A stretch of 64,000 bases of DNA, taken from sequence record OP557969.1; one strand, 5' to 3'. The notes below the pieces were generated by a model. The model saw only the letters and a program-made list of their open reading frames with translations, made no database searches and had not been told where the DNA came from. Positions within the stretch are counted from its first letter, which is position 1. The number at the start of each line of letters is the position of its first letter. Below, piece after piece: positions 4,665 through 19,414 of this stretch. The translations under genes were made by a program, and so were the position numbers. This DNA comes from Escherichia phage ph0011.

Positions 4665-4839
4665 AATCTTTAAAAAAGAATACGATGGTGAAAGCCTTTA
4701 TGATATTCAGAGAGATGTTCATGAAGCCTTTGATTCAAAATTTAACCCATTAGCTGAACAAATCCCACAAGATGAATTTGGTTTTCAGGAAGGCACTTTC
4801 ACAGTGACTATTACATGGAGTCCAGATGAGACTAGCTAA
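4654..4839 (+). CDS. hypothetical protein
   Basis: ORF track; start overlaps upstream gene end. Confidence 0.35.
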   Translation: MQNEIFKKEYDGESLYDIQRDVHEAFDSKFNPLAEQIPQDEFGFQEGTFTVTITWSPDETS

Positions 4840-4944
4840 ACTTGTCATAGGGTGTAGTGCAATTGCTGCATATATGATTTTTTCACCTCCAACCAATGTA
4901 TTACTGCTAATTTGGGCGGTTGTTATATTAGCAGTACTTTAAAG

Positions 4945-8069: not shown

Positions 8070-8096
8070 TATTACAGAAATGTGGAAATATATGAA

Positions 8097-8121
8097 GAAG
8101 CACCCTTTGGGTGCTTTTTTT
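8097..8121 (+). terminator. intrinsic terminator
   Basis: gcaccc-ttt-gggtgc hairpin followed by 7 T. Confidence 0.7.
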
Positions 8122-8128
8122 ATAATAT

Positions 8129-8136
8129 TATAAATA
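8129..8136 (+). promoter_or_regulatory. T4-type late promoter motif TATAAATA
   Basis: exact TATAAATA about 30 nt upstream of the 8168 start. Confidence 0.55.
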
Positions 8137-8167
8137 CACTATGAATATCTAGATAGAAGGGATATAT

Positions 8168-10867
8168 ATGGCAAATAAAATATATGGTGGTATTGATGTT
8201 ACACACAATGTCACAGTAAAAGGTAAGAGAAGTGCTCAGAGCATCAATGATGACGTATTTGATGAAAACGGCAATCTCACAATAGATGCATATACACAAA
8301 ATGATATGTTAGAAATGGTTGGTATGTTACCAATTTCTCGTTATGGTACACAAAACTATCTACCTGCTGGGGTTAATGGTACAACAGTTGGTTCTTCAGA
8401 AAATATTAATTCCAGAAATACAAAATTATTTTTGGAAGATGATAACACTTTAGTAATGTTACGTCCAGGTACTAATGGTAGTACTCAAGGTGTTTATTAT
8501 AGTTATATGACCCAAGCAGTAGGTACAACAAATACAAGTCGTATGGTTAATACTACTCGTGCATATAAACCCAATTACTTTGGTGCAGCATACGCAGTTT
8601 ATTTGTACCCAAGTAGTAATGATATTACTTGCGGTTTAGTGAGAATGGAGAATACCGATGGTACATATGTTGATAAAGTTTTTGTGTCAGATAATAATGG
8701 TACATTGAATGATGCAATGCACACTGGTATTATTCTATCAGATCATACAGCAGTACAACCTTTTGGTGCAATACAATTTGTTATTCGTGCAGAAGATGGT
8801 GCATTATATTTTTTTAGTTTAGACACACCAAATAATACTCTTAAAATATCCGTTACTAAAGTTACTTTTAGTCCAAGTAATAACCCAGGTGGTGGTACTT
8901 ATAGTATTACTAGAATTACTGGTTGGACTACAAGAACTTTTTATAATGCAATGATAGCTGATGAGAACATTGTTCCTACGATGAAAATAAATTCAACAAA
9001 TACCAATGATACTCCATACGTTTTAATTCCAAGCGGTATTATTGGGTTTGGTGTTTATATGACAGATCCAGATTTATATGTTGCACAGAGATCAGGTACA
9101 TCTACATTCAAATTTAGATTATGTGGTGATATGTGGATGAGTAATGGTAGATATGACATACGACCACAACATAGTTTTAGTATGACTTTTGATGTTGCAA
9201 CGAAGCAATGTGCACTCGATAATATGACAACGACTACACCAGTTGCTGTTTATGACAATGGTTCTAGCATGAATGCAACTGGACCTTGCTTGACAACTGA
9301 CCCATTTTATCTTCATGCAGGTGCACGTAATATTTTCAGTAATTATTGCTATATTCCATCAACAGGGGATGCGTTTTGTTCATTTTCACCAAACCTAGCA
9401 GAACCATTGAATTTATCATATGCAAAATACCCACCAAAATCTTTATTTGATTTGATGGATGTTAGAAGTGTGTCAGCAACTAATTTTATTAATGGTGTAG
9501 TAACACCAAGATTTGGTTCAGCAGTTGGGTCATACCAAGTAGGTGTAGAGTTATTACCAAATAACAGTACTAAACAATATTCAAGACGTTCTGGTGATGG
9601 TCGTTTTTTTCCATCCTATGCTGTTCATAAATCTACACCAAACTTTACATTCAAGTCGTTGAATTATGGTACAGTACCTGGTTATGAACCAACACCTGAC
9701 AGAAATTTCATAACCACACCAGAATCACGCATTTTTATAAGTTCAATATCTGGTTCAAACGTCACTACTAATGGTGGTGTTTTGGTTGCTGACATTAGAA
9801 CATCAACACCAATTAGTTTTGATTATAAAGGTAATGTACTGAATAATGGTACAATCAGTATGTCTCAAGATATAATGAATGCTATTAGGAATTCAGAATT
9901 TGCTAAAGTTGCTGGTTCTTGGGATATATCCCCAGCATCAGTAAAAACATTATCAGTTTTCGTTCCACAACAAACTGATATTCCTGTTTTCGCGGTTCTT
10001 GCTGCAACAACTAATTCCAGAGGACTATATATTCGTATGATTGAATTAGGTGTTAATACAAGAACAGGAGATATTACAACGTGGGCATTTAAACGTTTAG
10101 TACATGAAAGTGTTCAAGCTCTGGATTACAAAACTGATGCCGGATATTATCTTGATAGTGGAAGTATTGGTATTACTATATATGATGCTGGTTCTTTTTA
10201 CTTCATTGGTGGTGGTATTCCAGGTTTCTTTCCTACAGTTGGTAATACAGCTTCACCTTTTTTTCGTGCTACTGTAGATAAAGCAAGTAAGCAATTTAAT
10301 AATTTCCATATAGCTGGTAATCGACCTATCTATGCATTAGACGGTCAACCATTTGCTTTACCTGGTATTGGATTTGGTATTCTTCAAAGTATAGATCTTC
10401 AAAACAAAACTATTTTTAGAAAGTATGGAACTACATTAGAAGATTATAATGCATGGACTGATAAAGGAGATCCATTCATTTGCGTTGTTTCACAAGACGT
10501 TGCTCAAGGTTTTATTATATACTTCACTGAAGAGACACCAGTACTGATATCAGGTAAGCACTATACATTACCAATATCAAATATTGATTTAACAAAAGTG
10601 AAAGCAAATCCTGCGAATACTACATTTTATGTGTATATTAAATTAGTGCAGGGTATTGCAAAGTATCATATATCAACAACTGAATTAGCTGAAACTCAGT
10701 CAATATTCTGGATTGGTACAGTGAAAACTAATGATTTACAAATAACCGAAATTAATATCGTTAAACGTTCTCGTTTAGATCTGTTTGGTGCATCCTATGA
10801 CGCTGCCGGAAGTTCATTCCCAGTTAGTTCTGGTTTCCCTTCAGGTTCTGGTAATGTGAATTGGTAA
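8168..10867 (+). CDS. large putative tail fibre / receptor-binding structural protein (paralogue A)
   Basis: 899 aa, S/T/G/N-rich; late promoter upstream; N-terminal LPISRYG motif and conserved ~90-aa C-terminal module shared with 10878 and 11479 ORFs. Confidence 0.5.
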   Translation: MANKIYGGIDVTHNVTVKGKRSAQSINDDVFDENGNLTIDAYTQNDMLEMVGMLPISRYGTQNYLPAGVNGTTVGSSENINSRNTKLFLEDDNTLVMLRPGTNGSTQGVYYSYMTQAVGTTNTSRMVNTTRAYKPNYFGAAYAVYLYPSSNDITCGLVRMENTDGTYVDKVFVSDNNGTLNDAMHTGIILSDHTAVQPFGAIQFVIRAEDGALYFFSLDTPNNTLKISVTKVTFSPSNNPGGGTYSITRITGWTTRTFYNAMIADENIVPTMKINSTNTNDTPYVLIPSGIIGFGVYMTDPDLYVAQRSGTSTFKFRLCGDMWMSNGRYDIRPQHSFSMTFDVATKQCALDNMTTTTPVAVYDNGSSMNATGPCLTTDPFYLHAGARNIFSNYCYIPSTGDAFCSFSPNLAEPLNLSYAKYPPKSLFDLMDVRSVSATNFINGVVTPRFGSAVGSYQVGVELLPNNSTKQYSRRSGDGRFFPSYAVHKSTPNFTFKSLNYGTVPGYEPTPDRNFITTPESRIFISSISGSNVTTNGGVLVADIRTSTPISFDYKGNVLNNGTISMSQDIMNAIRNSEFAKVAGSWDISPASVKTLSVFVPQQTDIPVFAVLAATTNSRGLYIRMIELGVNTRTGDITTWAFKRLVHESVQALDYKTDAGYYLDSGSIGITIYDAGSFYFIGGGIPGFFPTVGNTASPFFRATVDKASKQFNNFHIAGNRPIYALDGQPFALPGIGFGILQSIDLQNKTIFRKYGTTLEDYNAWTDKGDPFICVVSQDVAQGFIIYFTEETPVLISGKHYTLPISNIDLTKVKANPANTTFYVYIKLVQGIAKYHISTTELAETQSIFWIGTVKTNDLQITEINIVKRSRLDLFGASYDAAGSSFPVSSGFPSGSGNVNW

Positions 10868-10877
10868 TGGAGAGAAT

Positions 10878-11468
10878 ATGTCTTATAAATTTAGAGCAGA
10901 TGTGGAAGCTTATGCTTCCGTTAAATCACAAGGAAAAAATACTGGGACCACGATAACTGTTCGTTCTGGTAATGTGTATCAAGCTGATGCAAATGGGAAT
11001 ATTGATATACCAGTCATGAGTACAGATGATGTGAATTACATTACCAGTTCGTTTCCGTTATCACAATTTGGACCACTTTACAGTGATGAACCATTAGGTA
11101 TTACTTCTGCGGGTTTCAATTTAACTTTCAGCAAAGAATTACCGTTATTCATGGCGGGAGCGGCGTATACCCTCCCAGCAAAAACAATAACAGATCCTGG
11201 TGTTTCTGGTACTAATATTGAAACACATTATGTATATGTTATATTAGATGTTGGGGTAGCTGACTACCTCATTTCTAAAACTCAACGACCTGAAAGTAGT
11301 GTTAATATGTACATCGGAAAACTAACAGTTTTCCCAGATGGCATTACAGGGGTCAGTATAAATAAAGTGTCAAGATTTGACAACTTCAGAGTAAGTTCTA
11401 CAAAAATTGGTTCAGCTATCCCTATCAGTTCTGGTTCACCAGATGTGAATGGTATGATAGAATGGTAA
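10878..11468 (+). CDS. small protein carrying the fibre C-terminal module
   Basis: C-terminal ~90 aa (YIGKLTV ... VSRFDNF ... GSAIPISSGSP) aligns with C-termini of both flanking ~900-aa proteins. Confidence 0.5.
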   Translation: MSYKFRADVEAYASVKSQGKNTGTTITVRSGNVYQADANGNIDIPVMSTDDVNYITSSFPLSQFGPLYSDEPLGITSAGFNLTFSKELPLFMAGAAYTLPAKTITDPGVSGTNIETHYVYVILDVGVADYLISKTQRPESSVNMYIGKLTVFPDGITGVSINKVSRFDNFRVSSTKIGSAIPISSGSPDVNGMIEW

Positions 11469-11478
11469 AGGAATATAT

Positions 11479-14220
11479 ATGGCTTCTAGACGAATTATAG
11501 GAAACGCAGATATACTAGGGAATTTAAAAATTAATGGAAAGTATGCATTACGTTCCCTTAATGGTGTTCCTGCTGACTCTGCTGGTAAAATCACTTATCA
11601 ATATTATGACAAAGCGGAAGTAAATCAGATATTTGATATGCTTCCAGTTTCAAGGGTAGGTGATCAAGATTACCTACCAATGAGTATTAACGGTACTTTT
11701 GAAGGTGCTTCTTCCTTTTCATTTGCAAAAATAATGCAACCTTGTATCATTGAAAATGATGGAACTGGTGTAATTTTACGTGCAGGTACAAATGGAAGTT
11801 CTTATGGTTACTATTATACTTATATTAAAAATATAAGAGATATAGAAACACTAACTCAAGATAATATAATTACAACCAATACGATGTATAGACCGTCTGT
11901 GCTACCAAGTACTGATTACATTTATGAATTTTATGGGTCAAATGCATATGAATTACTATTTTGGGAATCAACTGATAGAACATCATATTACCTTACATTA
12001 ACAAATGAAACATTGAATGAATCAGCACACAAGCATTGCAGAATTCCAAAAACAGCAATAACAAATAAACCAATATATGCACACATCGTAAATGATTCAG
12101 TTTATATATGGTGTATGGATTCAAGTGTATTTAGTAGTGTTCGCGGGTGTGCATTTATTATATACACAGTACCTTTAACTGCATTTAATACTGGTTCAGT
12201 TTCTACCGTAACACAGATTGGTGGTTATTCAGGAAGAACTATAAGAGATGCAACATATACTGCATCTAATAATATTCGCGTTTATGATAGCTATTCTATT
12301 TTAGGTTCAGGTGGTGATGCACTAATAGTATATGATAATGGTATTTCCAGAATAGATTATTGGGAAAATAACGTATTTAATACCCAAGCAGTTCTTAGCC
12401 CAGATGGTACAAAAATAAGAGTTGCGATCTATCCAGGATTCCGTGTTTTCACTGAAACAAAAACATCTAGTGTATATGCACTTGGTATTAGCTTTACATA
12501 TGATATCAGTACTAAAACAATGACACTTGACGGTTCTGAACGTGGTCCAATCAGAGTATCAGCTAATACATCAACTGGTAGTATAACAGTAAGAAACCCG
12601 TTTTCAATCAATATGGAAAACTTTACAGGGTTTTATGACGGTGCACTTGGCAACTATGGTTCAATCTGTCAAACTTCTGATGGTTTTGTTTTCACCACCA
12701 AAGCAAGATGGACATCCACACCAACATATGCAGTACAAACATACAAAGTTTCTGGTACACCTTATGATAGTTGGGTCGCTAAAACACGTACTGCTAGTAA
12801 TTTAAAACGTGTCGAAGTAATGCCAGTTTATGGTTCCCCTGTCGGTGAAAACTTAATAGGTGTTCGTTTCGTAGATAAACGTAAGATACTTGTTGCATGT
12901 TCTGGCACTGCTGATGGAATTTCTTATGGTTATGATAGTACAGTTTTTACTGAAATAGGTGAGAATCCGACTTATGTTTATAAAAACTTGGAACAAAATA
13001 CCACAATGAATGGTTTTGCACCATCAAGTAATAGACACTATTTAAGTACTGATTACAAATATGCAGGTATGATAACATTGGTTGATGCAAATGGAAATGT
13101 CAGCACTTATGGTTCTTCGTTAATAGAAGACATCGATAAACCAGCGTATGGAAAATTCGACCCAGTTACAATGGACTTCGACAGTAATAGATATGAAATT
13201 TCAGGAACAACATTATCAAGTATAGGTGATAATGCAATCGCTAAAGCTGGATTGTCTGGAATAACTGATCATAAAACTGTTTTTTATTATGTACCTGATA
13301 CTACATATTCTAAATCGATTGCAGTCACTTCTGCATTAAACGGTACTACCAATGTGTGTTATATTATTTTTTCCGAAATATCATGTAGTGCAGTTGGTAC
13401 AAGTGGTACTATAATTTTACGTGATATTAATGTTGATACAGCAAGATATACATCAATGACGAATACATTCCAAATTTCACCAAATGAAATGGTCAAACGT
13501 TGGGCTGGTATGACGGTTTCTAAGTTTAGTGGTTTTAACTACTTAGGTGTGAACATTTTATATGGCATTGATACCCCAGGTTGGACTCGTTATCCTAACA
13601 TGATTGCTAAAGTGAAAAATGGTATTATTTCAAGTCAACGATATATGGAAACAACTTATATTTCAAACGCACAATTTGATATAGGTACAATTCCAGGGAT
13701 TGGGTTTGGATATTACCAAATGAACAAAAACGATTATCAAACTAAATCAGTTTTTGCTGTATGTGGTACTACTGAAGCAGATATGGATAAACTAATATCT
13801 GGTAATGAAACGATATCACAGTACTTAGTTATTGCTTCACAGGACGTGGCACAAGGGTTTCATGTATACTTTTCACAAGAAGTACCAGTTTTCTTGGGTG
13901 GAAAGTTTGCAAAGATACCACCGACTATGATAGACTTATCTACTATAAGTACTACACCAGAGAATTCAACATTCTACATATATGCGGTGATGGATAGAGA
14001 TACATCCACAGCATCGTATCAGATATCACTACATCAATTATCAGAAACTATGACATCAACATACATTGGTAAGATAGTAACTAATAATAATGGTATTGCA
14101 TCAATCGAGTCTGAAAAAGTTTCCAGATTCTTGCTATACCGTCCAAGTACCTACAATCGTGGTTCTGCGATCCCAGCAAGTTCTGGTGTTCCGTCAGGAA
14201 CAGGTACACGTTGGAATTAA
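11479..14220 (+). CDS. large putative tail fibre / receptor-binding structural protein (paralogue B)
   Basis: 913 aa; N-terminal MLPVSRVGDQDYLP and C-terminal GSAIPASSGVPSG module shared with 8168 ORF. Confidence 0.5.
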   Translation: MASRRIIGNADILGNLKINGKYALRSLNGVPADSAGKITYQYYDKAEVNQIFDMLPVSRVGDQDYLPMSINGTFEGASSFSFAKIMQPCIIENDGTGVILRAGTNGSSYGYYYTYIKNIRDIETLTQDNIITTNTMYRPSVLPSTDYIYEFYGSNAYELLFWESTDRTSYYLTLTNETLNESAHKHCRIPKTAITNKPIYAHIVNDSVYIWCMDSSVFSSVRGCAFIIYTVPLTAFNTGSVSTVTQIGGYSGRTIRDATYTASNNIRVYDSYSILGSGGDALIVYDNGISRIDYWENNVFNTQAVLSPDGTKIRVAIYPGFRVFTETKTSSVYALGISFTYDISTKTMTLDGSERGPIRVSANTSTGSITVRNPFSINMENFTGFYDGALGNYGSICQTSDGFVFTTKARWTSTPTYAVQTYKVSGTPYDSWVAKTRTASNLKRVEVMPVYGSPVGENLIGVRFVDKRKILVACSGTADGISYGYDSTVFTEIGENPTYVYKNLEQNTTMNGFAPSSNRHYLSTDYKYAGMITLVDANGNVSTYGSSLIEDIDKPAYGKFDPVTMDFDSNRYEISGTTLSSIGDNAIAKAGLSGITDHKTVFYYVPDTTYSKSIAVTSALNGTTNVCYIIFSEISCSAVGTSGTIILRDINVDTARYTSMTNTFQISPNEMVKRWAGMTVSKFSGFNYLGVNILYGIDTPGWTRYPNMIAKVKNGIISSQRYMETTYISNAQFDIGTIPGIGFGYYQMNKNDYQTKSVFAVCGTTEADMDKLISGNETISQYLVIASQDVAQGFHVYFSQEVPVFLGGKFAKIPPTMIDLSTISTTPENSTFYIYAVMDRDTSTASYQISLHQLSETMTSTYIGKIVTNNNGIASIESEKVSRFLLYRPSTYNRGSAIPASSGVPSGTGTRWN

Positions 14221-14224
14221 TTTT

Positions 14225-14255
14225 AAAGCTCGTCTATTGACGGGCTTTTCTTTTG
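14225..14255 (+). terminator. intrinsic terminator
   Basis: aaagctcgtc/gacgggcttt hairpin (one G-U pair) followed by T-rich run. Confidence 0.6.
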
Positions 14256-14288
14256 TGTGTATAATACAAAGAAATATAGGAGGAAATT

Positions 14289-14855
14289 ATGGTCAAATCA
14301 TTACTACCACCACCAAAACGACATAAAATTAAAGAAATGAAAGAACAACGTACATTAAAGATGTACAACAATTTAGTTAATTTACTTTGCAAAAGTCCAT
14401 CACTCAAAGAAATATTCACCACAGATGATGATCGTAATGCACTTATTGAGATGAAGTATATGCTCAGTAAAATGTCCTTTTACAAATTTGTCAAAGAATA
14501 CTCAACTGAACCATTCAGTCCTCGTTGGCGAGTCAAACCAAGAGAGTATTTTTTCGGTGGTTCATATACTGATATCATTCAAGATACGGTGATAGGCGTA
14601 GAGTTCGAGATTGATTATGAGCCTAATGGTGTGGAAAACTGGCAGATTGACAAACATTTACCAAGTGAAGATGAAATTTATGTTTATGCAAGAAAACAGT
14701 CAACTTTCAGTTCAAAAATTGCTCTTAATAATTTAGATTCATTTATTATTTTCTATACATTTGTCGGTGTAGATAAAATGGCAACTAAACTCAATGAATT
14801 ATCATTGCAACAAAAACAGATTAATGCATACAAAGACATTACAGATTTATACTAA
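14289..14855 (+). CDS. hypothetical protein, paralogue family member 1
   Basis: AGGAGG SD; shares motif TTDDDRNALIEMKYMLSK with next two genes. Confidence 0.55.
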   Translation: MVKSLLPPPKRHKIKEMKEQRTLKMYNNLVNLLCKSPSLKEIFTTDDDRNALIEMKYMLSKMSFYKFVKEYSTEPFSPRWRVKPREYFFGGSYTDIIQDTVIGVEFEIDYEPNGVENWQIDKHLPSEDEIYVYARKQSTFSSKIALNNLDSFIIFYTFVGVDKMATKLNELSLQQKQINAYKDITDLY

Positions 14856-14867
14856 TGAGGATTGGAT

Positions 14868-15383
14868 ATGTTTTTTGGACAGTTTAAAAAACCTGACAGT
14901 ACTTTAATTTGGCATGAAATCATCTTTAAAATTATATCTAAAAGCTACTCACTAAAAGATATTATCAAAACAGATCATGATCGACGTGTTCTGTTAGAAG
15001 CAAAATATAAATTGAGCAAACACCCGTTACTTTCTTTAATCATTGATTACGTTAATGATTATGAATCCAGTCGTTGGAAGTGGGAAGACGGAGGTTTATT
15101 TCGTGGAAAAACATTCTACGGTGCAGAACGATATGTATTCAGTGATACAGCAAATGGTGTTAAGTTTGCTATTAGAAACTTTAACTCCAAAGAAAATGAT
15201 TATCTTGAAAGTGGAGTTAAGGTGTATATAGATAATAATAACAATGTACTTACATATGACGAATCACTAATTATGTTACAAATAATGCGTGGAGTTGAAA
15301 GTGTAAGACACAATCTTACTAAGTTGAAAATCCAGCAAAATGATATACATAATAGACAGAAAATTAAGGGTTTATATAAATGA
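14868..15383 (+). CDS. hypothetical protein, paralogue family member 2
   Basis: GAGGA-7nt-ATG; motif KTDHDRRVLLEAKYKLSK. Confidence 0.5.
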   Translation: MFFGQFKKPDSTLIWHEIIFKIISKSYSLKDIIKTDHDRRVLLEAKYKLSKHPLLSLIIDYVNDYESSRWKWEDGGLFRGKTFYGAERYVFSDTANGVKFAIRNFNSKENDYLESGVKVYIDNNNNVLTYDESLIMLQIMRGVESVRHNLTKLKIQQNDIHNRQKIKGLYK

Positions 15384-15889
15384 TTTCATTTTTCAAAAAG
15401 AAAGAAAAAGTTGATGAAACTGGATTAGAATCGTTTCTATGGACTCTTATCATTAAAAAAAGTCCATTAATGAAAGAATATGCTATCAATGATGCTAATA
15501 GAAAAACTATCATTGAATACAAATACGAATTATCAAAATGTGATCCAATAGTTTATCACTTTGCGAAGTACTGTTCTAAAAATTTATCGGATATCACGAT
15601 TGAACACGAGTCAGTACCAATGAGTTTTCCTTATGGTGATTGGGTAAATACTTTTGATATTTTCGATGGGTCTAATGGATTCCGTTTCTTTTACTCGTCA
15701 AATAAAGCAAATGTTCGTATTAAAACTGAGATAGGTTGGGCACAGCATAGCACAAATAAAGAAGATTATAATTTACTAGCTGACGTATACCGAAGTGTGA
15801 AGAATTCAAAGGATATTGATGAAAGAATTAAAAAGCAAAATCGTATTTCTTTATCACTTGAAACATACAAGTCAAAGTATGGTGGTTAA
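15380..15889 (+). CDS. hypothetical protein, paralogue family member 3
   Basis: ATGA overlap; motif INDANRKTIIEYKYELSK. Confidence 0.5.
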   Translation: MISFFKKKEKVDETGLESFLWTLIIKKSPLMKEYAINDANRKTIIEYKYELSKCDPIVYHFAKYCSKNLSDITIEHESVPMSFPYGDWVNTFDIFDGSNGFRFFYSSNKANVRIKTEIGWAQHSTNKEDYNLLADVYRSVKNSKDIDERIKKQNRISLSLETYKSKYGG

Positions 15890-15891
15890 CT

Positions 15892-16293
15892 ATGACTACA
15901 GTTGATGATATCTATAGTACTATACGCAATATGAGCACAGATAGAAAAGTATTTGGTGATAAAGAAAAATCTAAGTGTTATGGTATTGATTCTTTTGATA
16001 TAATTTCGTATGAGTACAATACGAATGGAAATAGTTCACTGAATATTGTCTGCCCTCGTGACCCAGAAAATAATTTTATGTATGTTGAAATTAATAATGA
16101 TGGAATGTTTTTTACAAAAGTTTTTAAAGGTGGAATTAATTACGAAACAATTGAATGTATGAATGAAGAAACTTTCTTTCAAGAAGATACAATTATCAAT
16201 TTAGGTTTTAGTTTTGATGATTATAAAACATTAGAACATGACTTTAATCGTTATTATAACGGTTTCTTAAAGGAGTTAACAATTTATCTATGA
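15892..16293 (+). CDS. hypothetical protein
   Basis: ORF track; tight spacing. Confidence 0.45.
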   Translation: MTTVDDIYSTIRNMSTDRKVFGDKEKSKCYGIDSFDIISYEYNTNGNSSLNIVCPRDPENNFMYVEINNDGMFFTKVFKGGINYETIECMNEETFFQEDTIINLGFSFDDYKTLEHDFNRYYNGFLKELTIYL

Positions 16294-17522
16294 ATAACCA
16301 ATATGTTGAACAAACAATAGTGAAACACTTGGCTGGGTCACAAGCCTACGGAACCAGTACACCTGAAAGTGATACTGATTATCGTGGTATTTTTCTTGCT
16401 AATAAAGAATTTATTCTTACGCCATTCTATAAGGTTAAAGAAGTAGCTGATAAAAATGAAGAAGATACCAAATTCTATGAGTTAAATCAGTATTTAAAAT
16501 TATACACTGATGCTAACCCTAATATTCTGGAATCACTATGGGTTGAACCAGAACACATTGTAGAAAGTACTGAGATTTATGACTATCTTCGTTCATTTAA
16601 CCAAAAACTTCTTAGTTCCAAGATTGCATTTTCATACACTGGATATGCATATAATCAAATTAAACGTATGACAAATCACCACGGTTGGATGGATAAAGAG
16701 CGTATTGCTGAAAAACGTTTAAATGAGATTTTAGAAGAACACCCAGTCGATGAGGTTCTTGTGTGGATGTATGATTCATTCCCACAATATCTTGTTGACC
16801 GTTTAGATACATCCAAATTACATCCATTTAATGCTAAAAAGATTGATTTTGAAAAATACATGCGTGATACGTCATTGCAGTTAGTTTCGAAAAATCCATT
16901 AAAGCAATATCATTTTGTAAGATTAGTGCATAACTACACTACTGATAAAATTCTAGATCGTGATTTCAATTTATTGAATTTTAACAATGGGTATGAACTA
17001 ATTCATTACGGAGAAAACATTTTTGCGATTATTAAAAATCCAAATGAAAGTACAATCAACGGTGATGGTTCATTGCGACATTTTTCAAAAGAGCGTAGTA
17101 CTGAAGAGTTGAAAACCAAACCAGAACTAATTGTCAAATTTAACGAAAAAGAATATCAGGAAAATAGTGAGAATAGAAAAAGTTATCATAAATGGAAAGA
17201 AAATCGTAATGCCAAACGTGCTATTTTAGAATCACTACACGGCTATGATTGCAAAAGTGCAATGCATACCATTAGACTATTGAATAGTGCAGAAGATGCA
17301 TTACAAAGTGGGATTATTCAAGTTAAACGCCCAGATGCACAGATGTTGATGGATATTCGTAATGGTAAATGGAAGTATGAAGAAGTTTTAGAATATTTCG
17401 ATGATAAAGTAAAATATATCCGTGATGTTCTATATAAGAAATCAGAACTTCCAAAAAAACCAGATATTAAATTAGCATCGAAAATTATCATTGATATCCG
17501 AGAGATGCAATGGTATAAGTAA
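16290..17522 (+). CDS. Pol-beta superfamily nucleotidyltransferase
   Basis: N-terminal hAGSQAYGTSTPESDTDYRGIF = G[SG]x9-13DhD nucleotidyltransferase signature; ATGA overlap. Confidence 0.6.
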   Translation: MNNQYVEQTIVKHLAGSQAYGTSTPESDTDYRGIFLANKEFILTPFYKVKEVADKNEEDTKFYELNQYLKLYTDANPNILESLWVEPEHIVESTEIYDYLRSFNQKLLSSKIAFSYTGYAYNQIKRMTNHHGWMDKERIAEKRLNEILEEHPVDEVLVWMYDSFPQYLVDRLDTSKLHPFNAKKIDFEKYMRDTSLQLVSKNPLKQYHFVRLVHNYTTDKILDRDFNLLNFNNGYELIHYGENIFAIIKNPNESTINGDGSLRHFSKERSTEELKTKPELIVKFNEKEYQENSENRKSYHKWKENRNAKRAILESLHGYDCKSAMHTIRLLNSAEDALQSGIIQVKRPDAQMLMDIRNGKWKYEEVLEYFDDKVKYIRDVLYKKSELPKKPDIKLASKIIIDIREMQWYK

Positions 17523-17616
17523 TATATGGGTGTAATAGTTATAAAAAATTCCATTACACACCAAATCACTTCAGTGATTTATATCTTGACATTGAAAAAA
17601 ATAATTATGTATAGTT

Positions 17617-17647
17617 AGAGAACTTCATATGGAGTTCTCTTTTTTTA
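17617..17647 (+). terminator. intrinsic terminator
   Basis: 10-bp stem agagaacttc/ggagttctct, 4-nt loop, 7 T. Confidence 0.75.
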
Positions 17648-17660
17648 TAAGGGTGATTAA

Positions 17661-18062
17661 ATGTTAAATGAACGTATTAAAAATGCACTATATGTATTGA
17701 ACCAAGAAGTTAATTCTATTAATAAAAGTACTGAGCGATATAAAGTATTACATGAAATTAGACAAGAATTGGAATCTATTAATAAGGGAAAATGGGTTCT
17801 TGAACGCGAACGAACTATTGTTGAAAAAGCAATTGCAAAATTCATCTCTGAACGTTATGGTAAAATTTCAGAGGAAGATGTACTAATGAACTTACATCTT
17901 TCACAAACGGAAGTGATGGAGAAATTTCATTTTGATTCATTAGACTGGTTGGAAATGATCATGGAATTGGAAGAAGAATTCAATGTAGAAGTAGATTTAT
18001 ATTATGAAAAACAAGAAACCAAACTATATGAACTAGCAGAACATATTAAACTAATGATGTAA
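17661..18062 (+). CDS. acyl-carrier-protein-like protein with N-terminal extension
   Basis: C-terminal FDSLDWLEMIMELEEEFNVEV matches ACP phosphopantetheine-attachment region (DSLD ... ALEEEF). Confidence 0.55.
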   Translation: MLNERIKNALYVLNQEVNSINKSTERYKVLHEIRQELESINKGKWVLERERTIVEKAIAKFISERYGKISEEDVLMNLHLSQTEVMEKFHFDSLDWLEMIMELEEEFNVEVDLYYEKQETKLYELAEHIKLMM

Positions 18063-18115: not shown

Positions 18116-18490
18116 ATGAGTGTACTAGAAATTATTGTTTCAAAAATTTTAATTCCATATTGGAAGCCGATTTCTTTTGCGTTATTACTCGGTGGTGCGG
18201 CATTATCAGGTTGGAAAGCTAATACTTATTATACTGGTTATCAGCAAAGTATCGAGCAACAAATAGCCAAACAGGTTGATGTCGCACTTGATAAAATGCA
18301 ACAGGAAAATGCAAAAAATTACATTGAAACAAAAAAAATCATGGAAGATAATGCTAAAGTTATTGAAACGAAAGTTCCTTATATAGTAGAACGCAAAGTT
18401 TATAAGAATGTGTGTTTAGATGAAGATGGCGTGAAAATTCTAAATGATCTAAAACAAAATTCACAAGCAATGAGGAATAAGTTAAAATGA
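18116..18490 (+). CDS. putative i-spanin (Rz-like)
   Basis: single N-terminal TM (ISFALLLGGAALSGW) followed by charged coiled-coil-like region; followed by overlapping lipoprotein gene. Confidence 0.5.
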   Translation: MSVLEIIVSKILIPYWKPISFALLLGGAALSGWKANTYYTGYQQSIEQQIAKQVDVALDKMQQENAKNYIETKKIMEDNAKVIETKVPYIVERKVYKNVCLDEDGVKILNDLKQNSQAMRNKLK

Positions 18491-18795
18491 AAAAAATATT
18501 AGTCCCAATGATTTCTTTTTTAATTATAAGTGGTTGTGCTGAACAAGCAAAACTACAATCACCTGCACCTATTAAACAAGAAATTCTATTAGAAAGATGT
18601 GATGATGATACACCTCTGCCACAAAAAATCATGATTGACAATAATGGTTTTAAAGGTTATGATGGTGCAGAAATTCTTAAAGTACTTACTCGTTGGGATG
18701 CAATCTATAATGAGTGTGCTTTAAAACATGATGCCTTGATTAAAACTATTCGCGATTTACAAGGCAAAGATATTAAAATTAATATCAAGGAATAA
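18487..18795 (+). CDS. putative o-spanin (Rz1-like lipoprotein)
   Basis: signal peptide with lipobox IISGC; start overlaps i-spanin stop. Confidence 0.5.
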   Translation: MKKILVPMISFLIISGCAEQAKLQSPAPIKQEILLERCDDDTPLPQKIMIDNNGFKGYDGAEILKVLTRWDAIYNECALKHDALIKTIRDLQGKDIKINIKE

Positions 18796-18796
18796 A

Positions 18797-19414
18797 ATGA
18801 ACAAATATCATGTTTACTATAAGACTAATTTATCACTACTGGAAAAATTAAACCATAAAAGTACTAAGATTAAACACTACACATTAAATGGAATTACTTT
18901 TAAGTATTTTCCACAAAAAGTTCTTACATTTATTAAGAATCCAAAATGCATAGCATGTGGTATTGAAGCAACAGAAGTACGTATTGAACGTACATTTAGT
19001 TCTGACCCAATTTTCGGTAAACCACATTTAAATCTATATGCAGTATGTGGTCTTTATGAAGTTTTAATGACAGTTGACCATAATAATCTAGCATCAAAAG
19101 GTGGTCCAGATTTAGAGTCGAACTTTAATACTATGTGCTCCAGATGCAATCAACTACGTTCAAATAAAACTGAATCAGTTGATGAGTTTCTTGTGAAAGT
19201 TAAAGGTCGTAATCTTCTACAAGAACATATGAATAATTTCTTTAATGTGCAAAATGGACAAAAGAAAAATAGTATTGATAAATCAAAACTACTAGAAGAA
19301 CGTAGATTACAACAAGAATTATGGGAAACTGATCATTTATGGCATGTTCGAGAATTTGGTCGCCATATGAAAGCGTTAAAAAAAGAACAAAAGAAATTGA
19401 ACAATCACAATTAA
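18797..19414 (+). CDS. HNH-family endonuclease (free-standing, homing-endonuclease-like)
   Basis: CIACG ... VDHNNLASKGG ... CSRCNQLRSNK resembles His-Me finger HNH motif with Cys zinc ligands. Confidence 0.55.
   Translation: MNKYHVYYKTNLSLLEKLNHKSTKIKHYTLNGITFKYFPQKVLTFIKNPKCIACGIEATEVRIERTFSSDPIFGKPHLNLYAVCGLYEVLMTVDHNNLASKGGPDLESNFNTMCSRCNQLRSNKTESVDEFLVKVKGRNLLQEHMNNFFNVQNGQKKNSIDKSKLLEERRLQQELWETDHLWHVREFGRHMKALKKEQKKLNNHN

Follow-up and report, generated by a model that had tools for sequence, protein, structure and literature searches.

Large phages carry diversified clusters of early accessory and anti-defence genes, as exemplified by the early-gene clusters of T4 and by anti-CRISPR and anti-defence loci made of small, fast-evolving genes. 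Phages also encode tail-fibre assembly chaperones, such as gp38 and gp57A of T4 and Tfa of lambda. More than 80% of the genes have no known function in the jumbo phages of the RaK2/121Q/CBB group, which are both employed and investigated for phage therapy against E. coli, Klebsiella, Salmonella and plant pathogens. Here we analyse three consecutive small genes of one such phage (open reading frames ORF1–3), located at positions 14289–15889 in 64,000 nucleotides of DNA from Escherichia phage ph0011 (record OP557969.1; hereafter, the window). The window comes from an Asteriusvirus (121Q/PBECO4-like) jumbo phage. The region shares 96% identity with Escherichia phage UE-S1 and about 92% with further jumbo phages of this genus, among them 121Q, PBECO4 and phAPEC6. 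The trio is deposited in Asteriusvirus genomes as hypothetical proteins (gp502–504 in 121Q) and catalogued in two PHROGs. We find that the three proteins are true paralogues of a single family that is absent from two virion proteome lists, diverges much faster than its neighbours and is encoded upstream of an RNA-repair nucleotidyltransferase (NTase). The finding is solid but ordinary: an uncharacterised accessory family of a jumbo phage for which a role in counter-defence is plausible.

ORF1–3 are paralogues of one protein family

The three genes lie on the plus strand and code for proteins of 188 (ORF1, 14289–14855), 171 (ORF2, 14868–15383) and 169 (ORF3, 15380–15889) amino acids (aa) that correspond to gp502, gp503 and gp504 of 121Q, respectively. 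All of them contain a conserved block, at 14418–14471 in ORF1 (aa 44–61), 14967–15020 in ORF2 (aa 34–51) and 15485–15538 in ORF3 (aa 36–53). The original prediction quoted three motif strings from this block, which are present exactly in ORF1–3, and took the consecutive genes for paralogues, as pairwise and profile alignments (BLASTP, PHROG and hhalign) bore out. ORF1 and ORF2 align over their whole length (175 columns, 30% identity, BLASTP 6e-16), and ORF3 is recognisably related to both ORF1 (2e-5) and ORF2 (3e-5). Full-length profile matches assign ORF1 (5.6e-73) and ORF2 (1.1e-80) to phrog_18641 and ORF3 (1.3e-57) to phrog_7868. ORF2 also matches phrog_7868 over its full length (1.2e-12, among the strongest cross-matches). 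Furthermore, the profile of the ORF1/2 type aligns with that of the ORF3 type at 98.8% probability (hhalign, E = 7.2e-17, 153 aligned columns). Because the pairwise, PHROG and profile–profile statistics are all significant, the paralogy is real and full-length, and the same scores exclude a low-complexity or chance motif as the source of the similarity. The description of the rest of each protein as divergent needs correction, as the homology reaches beyond the block to the full length and includes a conserved aspartate in the beta-region and a conserved C-terminal tyrosine.

Within a set of 35 family members, phrog_7868 was matched by 34 and phrog_18641 by 33. Thus, the two PHROGs are one superfamily with positional subfamilies, although the database itself keeps them as two separate, unannotated families. 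ORF1 is the first copy (A1 type), ORF2 the second (A2 type) and ORF3 the third (B type); a fourth copy was sought in the 64-kb window and none was found. The ATG at 14868 is the likely start of ORF2 because a GAGGA Shine-Dalgarno sequence lies 6 nucleotides (nt) upstream and the 121Q annotation uses the same start. The alternative, a TTG at 14862 that would yield 173 aa, is less likely. A perfect Shine-Dalgarno sequence (AGGAGG, 14278–14283, plus strand), as read from the DNA, precedes the ATG of ORF1 by 5 nt.

The family is old and, as far as traced, restricted to one jumbo-phage clade

A word-indexed search of 5.8 billion proteins recovered 12 family clusters, and an exhaustive hidden Markov model search of 1.84 billion representative proteins gave 32 matches. 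All but one of the latter were single-domain proteins of up to about 200 aa, including a few short fragments; we regarded the remaining match, a 2278-aa repeat protein, as spurious. Searches with tblastn placed it in phages of Escherichia, of Salmonella and of Klebsiella (RaK2, K64-1, Muenster). Divergent queries extended the range to Salmonella phage Munch and its relatives 7t3 and PHA46, Yersinia phages fHe-Yen9-03 and fHe-Yen9-04, Erwinia and Serratia Eneladusviruses, Pectobacterium phage CBB, Cronobacter phage GAP32 and Xanthomonas phage XbC2. Every member that we could trace belongs to the RaK2/121Q/CBB/GAP32-like jumbo-phage clade or to a metagenomic contig with the same gene order.

Copy number in related phages, a point raised with the original prediction, ranges from one to four. 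A single copy is present in the locus L011, two in Muenster, L007, L010, L013 and L014, three in Asteriusvirus and in the 2.5-kb contig L005, whose end cuts the first copy, and four in CBB and fHe-Yen9-04. Other genes interrupt the copies in L010, L014, CBB and fHe-Yen9-04. The variable copy number and the occasional interruptions argue against one obligate heteromer. An obligate A/B heterodimer, which the conserved A-then-B order had suggested, is weakened in particular by the single-copy L011, the interrupted copies and the four-copy genomes. In a neighbour-joining tree of 48 family members, the first copies of the window, A4 and JNE01 group together, as do the second copies. The last copies (window ORF3, A4_3, JNE01_3, Muenster_2 and L007_2) form an ancient B clade, and the CBB-type copies form a third clade. 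The copies are positional orthologues across several genera, and the duplications are therefore old. Thus, the trio is indeed a tandem array of paralogues, as originally described, but not one that diversified recently.

Damaged family genes were observed in two phages. The ORF2 C-terminus is fused to the ORF3 N-terminus in Escherichia phage CMSTMSU (P0008; record flagged UNVERIFIED), and Salmonella phage SD-1_S14 (P0009, P0012) has one internally deleted and one truncated copy. These may be assembly errors or a sign of dispensability.

The trio diverges faster than its neighbours and is not detected in virions

Comparisons across lineages set the trio apart from the genes on either side. Relative to A4, the window is 90–94% identical in the fibre proteins, 33–39% in the trio, 60% in the small downstream protein ORF4 and 87% in the NTase. 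The corresponding values relative to 121Q are 43–50%, 87–96%, 98% and 96%. Against Muenster or L007, the fibres gave no hit or 41–43% identity, and the trio was 25–40%, ORF4 53–59% and the NTase 70–72% identical. Hence the trio diverges much faster than its neighbours between lineages, and it does not diverge in step with the adjacent fibres, fibre and trio identities being anti-correlated between A4 and 121Q. The ratios of nonsynonymous to synonymous substitution rates (dN/dS) against 121Q were 0.17 for ORF1, 0.18 for ORF2 and 0.077 for ORF3, compared to 0.04 for ORF4 and 0.066 for the NTase. This purifying selection within each type indicates that ORF1–3 are real, constrained genes at a between-lineage divergence plateau. 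Positive selection among close relatives was not seen (dN/dS 0.08–0.18).

The family proteins were not detected in two published virion proteomes. The mass spectrometry (MS) list for phAPEC6 virions includes gp314c, gp315c and gp323c, with flanking fibre proteins among them (PMC7247149), and does not include gp316c–gp321c, which comprise the NTase, ORF4 and the trio (PMC7247149). Likewise, the annotation table of CBB flags CBB_148 and CBB_149 as MS-detected and carries no such flag for the family copies CBB_150, CBB_153, CBB_155 and CBB_156. The published list of CBB paralogues probably omits these four copies, which appear in the CBB supplementary text in the annotation table only. The accessory-like character anticipated in the original prediction is in keeping with the faster divergence, the absence from both proteomes and the variable copy number.

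The trio heads a predicted transcription unit distinct from the fibre operon

ORF1–3 are followed on the plus strand by ORF4 (15892–16293; 133 aa, an unrelated conserved small protein, phrog_22376) and by an RlaP-family Pol-beta NTase (16290–17522; 410 aa, PF10127, phrog_388). The small unrelated gene and the nucleotidyltransferase had been correctly described as following the trio. The five genes overlap or lie 2–12 nt apart, with ATGA overlaps at 15380, where the start of ORF3 overlaps the stop of ORF2, and at 16290. No plus-strand terminator-like site was seen between them. A terminator-like hairpin with a T-run (17617–17640, plus strand) after the NTase, which is the last gene, is the probable end of the unit; the next RpoD-like promoter (17586–17615) is reported as overlapping it. 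The tight packing, the lack of an internal terminator, the upstream promoter and the 3′ hairpin make the five genes look like one transcription unit and support the earlier proposal of a single one.

Upstream, a terminator-like hairpin (14225–14248, plus strand; AAAGCTCGTC-TATT-GACGGGCTTT and then a T-run) with 10 pairs, 5 of them GC, stands directly after the gene of a 913-aa fibre protein and closes the tail-fibre operon. The hairpin contains the −35 box of an RpoD (sigma-70)-like promoter (TTGACG-17-TATAAT; 14237–14265, plus strand), the predicted start of the five-gene unit. This site has 11 of 12 matches and ranked first in a 9-kb scan in which two other sites also had 11 of 12. Six phages of at least three lineages all have TATTGAC at the −35 position and, equally spaced from it, a −10-like box, and the arms of the hairpin covary across phages (GCTCGTC/GACGGGC, GCCTGTC/GACAGGC and GGCTGTC/GACAGCC). 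The arrangement recurs in fHe-Yen9-04 and CBB, where the loop of the hairpin contains TTGACA, the T-run forms the spacer and the −10 box lies 17 nt downstream. From these features we infer that the element functions as a promoter. It has the form of a compact bifunctional element, in which the −35 box TTGAC(A/G) is part of the loop or 3′ arm of a GC-rich terminator hairpin and the T-run doubles as the promoter spacer. Such elements are located at 14225–14265 in the window, at about 5452–5483 in L015 and at about 4838–4880 and 4918–4950 in L016. The element is kept in Asteriusvirus, Mimasvirus, Eneladusvirus and one metagenomic lineage.

The fibre operon (8168–14220) has a different predicted promoter. 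A hairpin with a T-run and then the T4-like late motif TATAAATA (8129–8136) occupy positions 8096–8137. The first fibre gene begins about 30 nt further on, with an ATG at 8168, and the motif looks like a T4-like late promoter of this operon. No T4-like late motif is present near the trio. Indeed, TATAAATA occurs in the window only at 8129, 11357 and 21355, and is rarer than in shuffled sequences (3 observed versus 11 expected). For the related phage CBB, an early class of RpoD-like promoters and a class of ATAAATA promoters driving late structural genes have been predicted (PMC5259590). The five-gene unit thus appears to be distinct from the fibre operon and, judging by its promoter motif, would be transcribed early. 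The trio does lie directly downstream of the fibre cluster, as the original prediction stated, but an operon link between them is contradicted by the conserved terminator and RpoD-like promoter in between and by the uncoupled divergence.

The position next to the fibres could also reflect a role of the trio as tail-fibre assembly chaperones or as non-virion maturation factors for the adjacent fibres. In every genus that we examined, a large fibre or structural gene is immediately followed by the first family copy, chaperones are typically absent from virions, and fibre genes are also found downstream of the block in 121Q and A4. However, the conserved terminator and RpoD-like promoter separate the trio from an operon with a late motif, and the identities to A4 and 121Q show that trio and fibres do not diverge together. 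Furthermore, the window retains the trio without the downstream gp507–509 fibre cassette of 121Q, the further copies in CBB and fHe-Yen9-04 follow Thg1 and DUF4326 genes far from the fibre genes, and no Pfam tail-assembly family matched ORF1–3 or the 35 members. A chaperone function is, accordingly, very unlikely.

The family is encoded next to the RNA-repair enzyme RlaP

The NTase matches the RlaP family (PF10127) with 57.5 bits (cut-off 23, E = 2.2e-15) across profile positions 23–144 of 249, which comprise the N-terminal NTase domain; the C-terminal ~280 aa lie outside the match. A sequence search of the NTase against the PDB gave no match. We compared the gene order of 14 loci. All of them have a large fibre or structural gene on one side of the family and, downstream of it and in the same orientation, the RlaP NTase, even though the NTase itself diverges to 53% identity. 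The L013 locus, a metagenomic jumbo-phage contig, initially lacked a Pfam call owing to a single frameshift near codon 20 of its NTase (9376–9425). Both upstream family copies are intact in this contig, and the presence of the frameshifted gene rules out a loss of RlaP with retention of the family.

RlaP enzymes extend the damaged 3′ ends of RNA by one or two nucleoside monophosphates and contribute to the recovery of tRNA function, a nucleotide-adding activity known solely for the Pseudomonas enzymes (bioRxiv 10.64898/2025.12.29.696909). Iyer et al. (2021) described RlaP as an RNA-repair counter-defence factor of jumbo phages and DUF4326 as a predicted NAD/ADP-ribose-linked enzyme (PMC7824862). 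Genes for a Thg1-type tRNA-His guanylyltransferase, DUF4326 and an N4/N6 DNA methyltransferase are interspersed among the family copies in the CBB, GAP32-type, fHe-Yen9-04 and L014 loci. The company of RlaP, Thg1, DUF4326 and a DNA methyltransferase makes the locus look like a counter-defence island. No RNA ligase, whose gene is an expected neighbour of RlaP, is annotated in the stretches that we inspected near the locus, although no search was aimed at this enzyme, and the 64-kb window has no tRNA genes.

These neighbours raise the alternative that the paralogues are cofactors or adaptors of RNA repair, which would bind damaged tRNA or RNA ends, or the repair enzymes, through a conserved polar stripe (see below) and channel the RNAs as members of the pathway rather than as inhibitors of the host. 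Consistent with such a role, a family copy precedes RlaP in the same orientation in every locus, and copies flank Thg1 in CBB, fHe-Yen9-04 and L014. The overlapping or closely spaced genes fit translational coupling, and the mildly basic proteins carry a stripe of D, R, K, Y and S residues typical of phosphate or nucleic-acid contacts. However, conserved partners (tRNA, or RlaP at 70–96% identity) should not drive the paralogues to 25–39% identity when ORF4 stays at 53–61%. RlaP-family enzymes, moreover, act alone in vitro (bioRxiv 10.64898/2025.12.29.696909). RlaP (phrog_388) also appears to be broader than the clade-restricted family, according to the note in the phAPEC6 record of a similarity to Salmonella phage PVP-SE1. 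Pfam detected no RNA-binding domain in ORF1–3 or in the 35 members, and the clade-wide synteny of the region makes the adjacency weak evidence. We therefore consider a cofactor role unlikely.

ORF4 may be a better candidate than the trio for a true RlaP partner. It is not a member of the family and is much more conserved than the paralogues, with counterparts 53–61% identical in A4, JNE01, Muenster and L007 and weaker phmmer matches in L011–L013. These counterparts usually lie just upstream of RlaP or one ORF of ~150 aa away.

The predicted structure has an invariant polar face

Family members are about 150–210 aa long and mildly basic (median isoelectric point of 8.8). A first structure model from 10 sequences was poor, with a predicted local distance difference test (pLDDT) score of 64, and returned nothing from a Foldseek search of the PDB. 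With an alignment of 35 sequences, AlphaFold2 produced an ORF2 model with a pLDDT of 85.3 and a predicted template modelling score of 0.79. The model has helices at residues 15–23, 29–32, 36–50, 55–63 and 130–169 and four strands between residues 70 and 121. The predicted architecture thus starts with a helical bundle, continues with a beta-region of four strands and ends in an amphipathic C-terminal helix of 40 residues, which has a continuous hydrophobic stripe of the a/d type. The confident model (pLDDT 85) had no significant match in the PDB, and a Foldseek search of BFVD solely returned uncharacterised members of the family.

The family signature consists of the S-x2-L ... D-x2-R-x6-K-Y-x-L-S-K block, an aspartate in the beta-hairpin and a C-terminal tyrosine, and all of these elements are present in ORF1–3. 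Residues D36, R39, K46, Y47, S50, D93 and Y170 (ORF2 numbering) are each conserved in at least 90% of 48 sequences. The first five fall within a 100-degree arc of the predicted helix 3 and would thus form a stripe on one of its faces.

Searches of Pfam, NCBIfam, PADLOC and PDB sequences returned nothing meaningful for the family. Pfam gave no match to ORF1–3 at E ≤ 0.1, including in tail-assembly families, and nothing recurrent for the 35 members at E ≤ 1. Weak single matches to DUF2290, ribosomal protein S14 and SAVED (E 0.3) were not repeated across members and were dismissed. We also rejected a match of ORF3 to phrog_10822, a C-terminal module of HNH endonucleases (E = 0.0061), as it was found in only 1 of the 35 members. 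Another explanation is that the proteins are nucleic-acid-binding regulators or host-takeover factors, such as early modulators of transcription or replication, with no relation to RNA repair or defence. We regard this function as quite improbable. The Pfam search of the 35 members at E ≤ 1 revealed no helix-turn-helix or other DNA-binding domain in any of them.

Fibre mosaicism and flanking genes

The fibre proteins encoded at 10878–14220 resemble those of A4, and 121Q is the closest match for the genes to their right. At the nucleotide level, the stretch of high identity to 121Q begins at ~13690 and that of high identity to A4 stops at ~14470, which implies that recombination took place close to where the fibre gene ends. 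Downstream of the unit (~17556–17559), the window lacks a ~3.4-kb cassette (compared with L001 15501–18931) located in 121Q between the NTase and the acyl-carrier-protein-like gene. The cassette is composed of gp507 and two tail-fibre genes, gp508 and gp509. At the same position, A4 has two fibre genes and JNE01 has an ORF of ~180 aa and a tail protein of ~930 aa.

The next gene in the window (17661–18062) codes for a 133-aa protein with an acyl-carrier-protein-like C-terminal half (NCBIfam, 29 bits, below the cut-off of 71). Its syntenic genes, which precede an Rz-like spanin, are annotated as acyl carrier proteins in CBB (gp163) and fHe-Yen9-04 (g153). Genes for Rz-like spanins (18116–18795) and an HNH endonuclease (18797–19414) follow.

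A tentative role in counter-defence

We tentatively propose that the paralogues are early, cytoplasmic and fast-evolving effectors that operate at the phage–host interface, each with its own target, possibly tRNA-targeting or other abortive-infection effectors. This possibility falls short of an even prospect. The proteins would be made from an early-type promoter read by the host RNA polymerase and act in the cytoplasm as accessory effectors. They would belong to a counter-defence island that includes enzymes of tRNA and RNA repair, with RlaP everywhere and Thg1, DUF4326 and the methyltransferase in distant genera. The shared scaffold and invariant polar stripe could give every paralogue a common binding chemistry, and the fast-evolving surface of each would recognise a different, variable host factor. 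Host abortive-infection effectors, for example tRNA-targeting nucleases, would be the most plausible targets. We propose that a common chemistry combined with different surfaces would allow the copies to act additively, with different specificities, rather than as one obligate complex.

Several observations weigh against this proposal. The whole region (NrdD/G, fibres, trio block, acyl carrier protein, spanins and HNH) is syntenic across the clade, and the position beside RlaP may thus have been inherited rather than reflect functional coupling, for which it is weak evidence. The early timing is deduced from a promoter motif and from classes of promoter that are themselves predictions in CBB, and the literature that we searched contains no transcriptome for this clade. 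Defence-related libraries (PADLOC models) gave no match, nor did the fold match solved anti-defence proteins. Finally, an enzyme, or a protein that binds a conserved ligand, would account for the invariant polar residues no less well than inhibitors of variable targets would. The trio are, in sum, reasonable but unproven candidates for counter-defence.

A more specific version of the proposal is that the family is an unrecognised class of jumbo-phage proteins working with the tRNA-repair enzymes RlaP and Thg1; its paralogues would either each inhibit a different tRNA-targeting nuclease of the host or serve as new specificity factors of RNA repair. We hold this to be doubtful. If true, the number of copies and their rapid divergence would follow the set of defences that the host possesses.

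What is new here is the unification of the two PHROGs, the definition of positional subfamilies and invariant residues, and a confident model without a significant match among solved structures. To this we add the non-detection in virions, the conserved terminator/promoter element and the strong contrast in rates with the neighbouring genes. Three hypothetical proteins have become a defined family, one that anti-defence screens could address concretely and at low cost. Should the paralogues neutralise tRNA-targeting or abortive-infection systems of the host, they would add a new protein class to the counter-defence repertoire of phages, and a counter-defence role would help explain why RNA-repair genes cluster at this locus. 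Should they not, the merging of two PHROGs into one superfamily is still a clean gain in annotation.

Comparison with known systems

The scaffolds of XRCC4, PAXX and SAS-6, each a head plus a coiled-coil stalk, are among the closest known systems. Like chaperones of the T4 gp38/gp57A and lambda Tfa type, the trio proteins are small, non-virion and encoded directly behind a fibre gene. Unlike those chaperones, the trio has its own predicted promoter class, an intervening terminator, uncoupled divergence and copies remote from fibres, and it matches none of their families. Clusters of the T4 early and anti-CRISPR type resemble the trio in small size, a predicted early promoter, non-virion proteins, rapid divergence, variable copy number and counter-defence neighbours. 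The trio differs from them in having no sequence or fold kinship to characterised anti-defence proteins, and in forming an array that is ancient and positionally conserved rather than often reshuffled.

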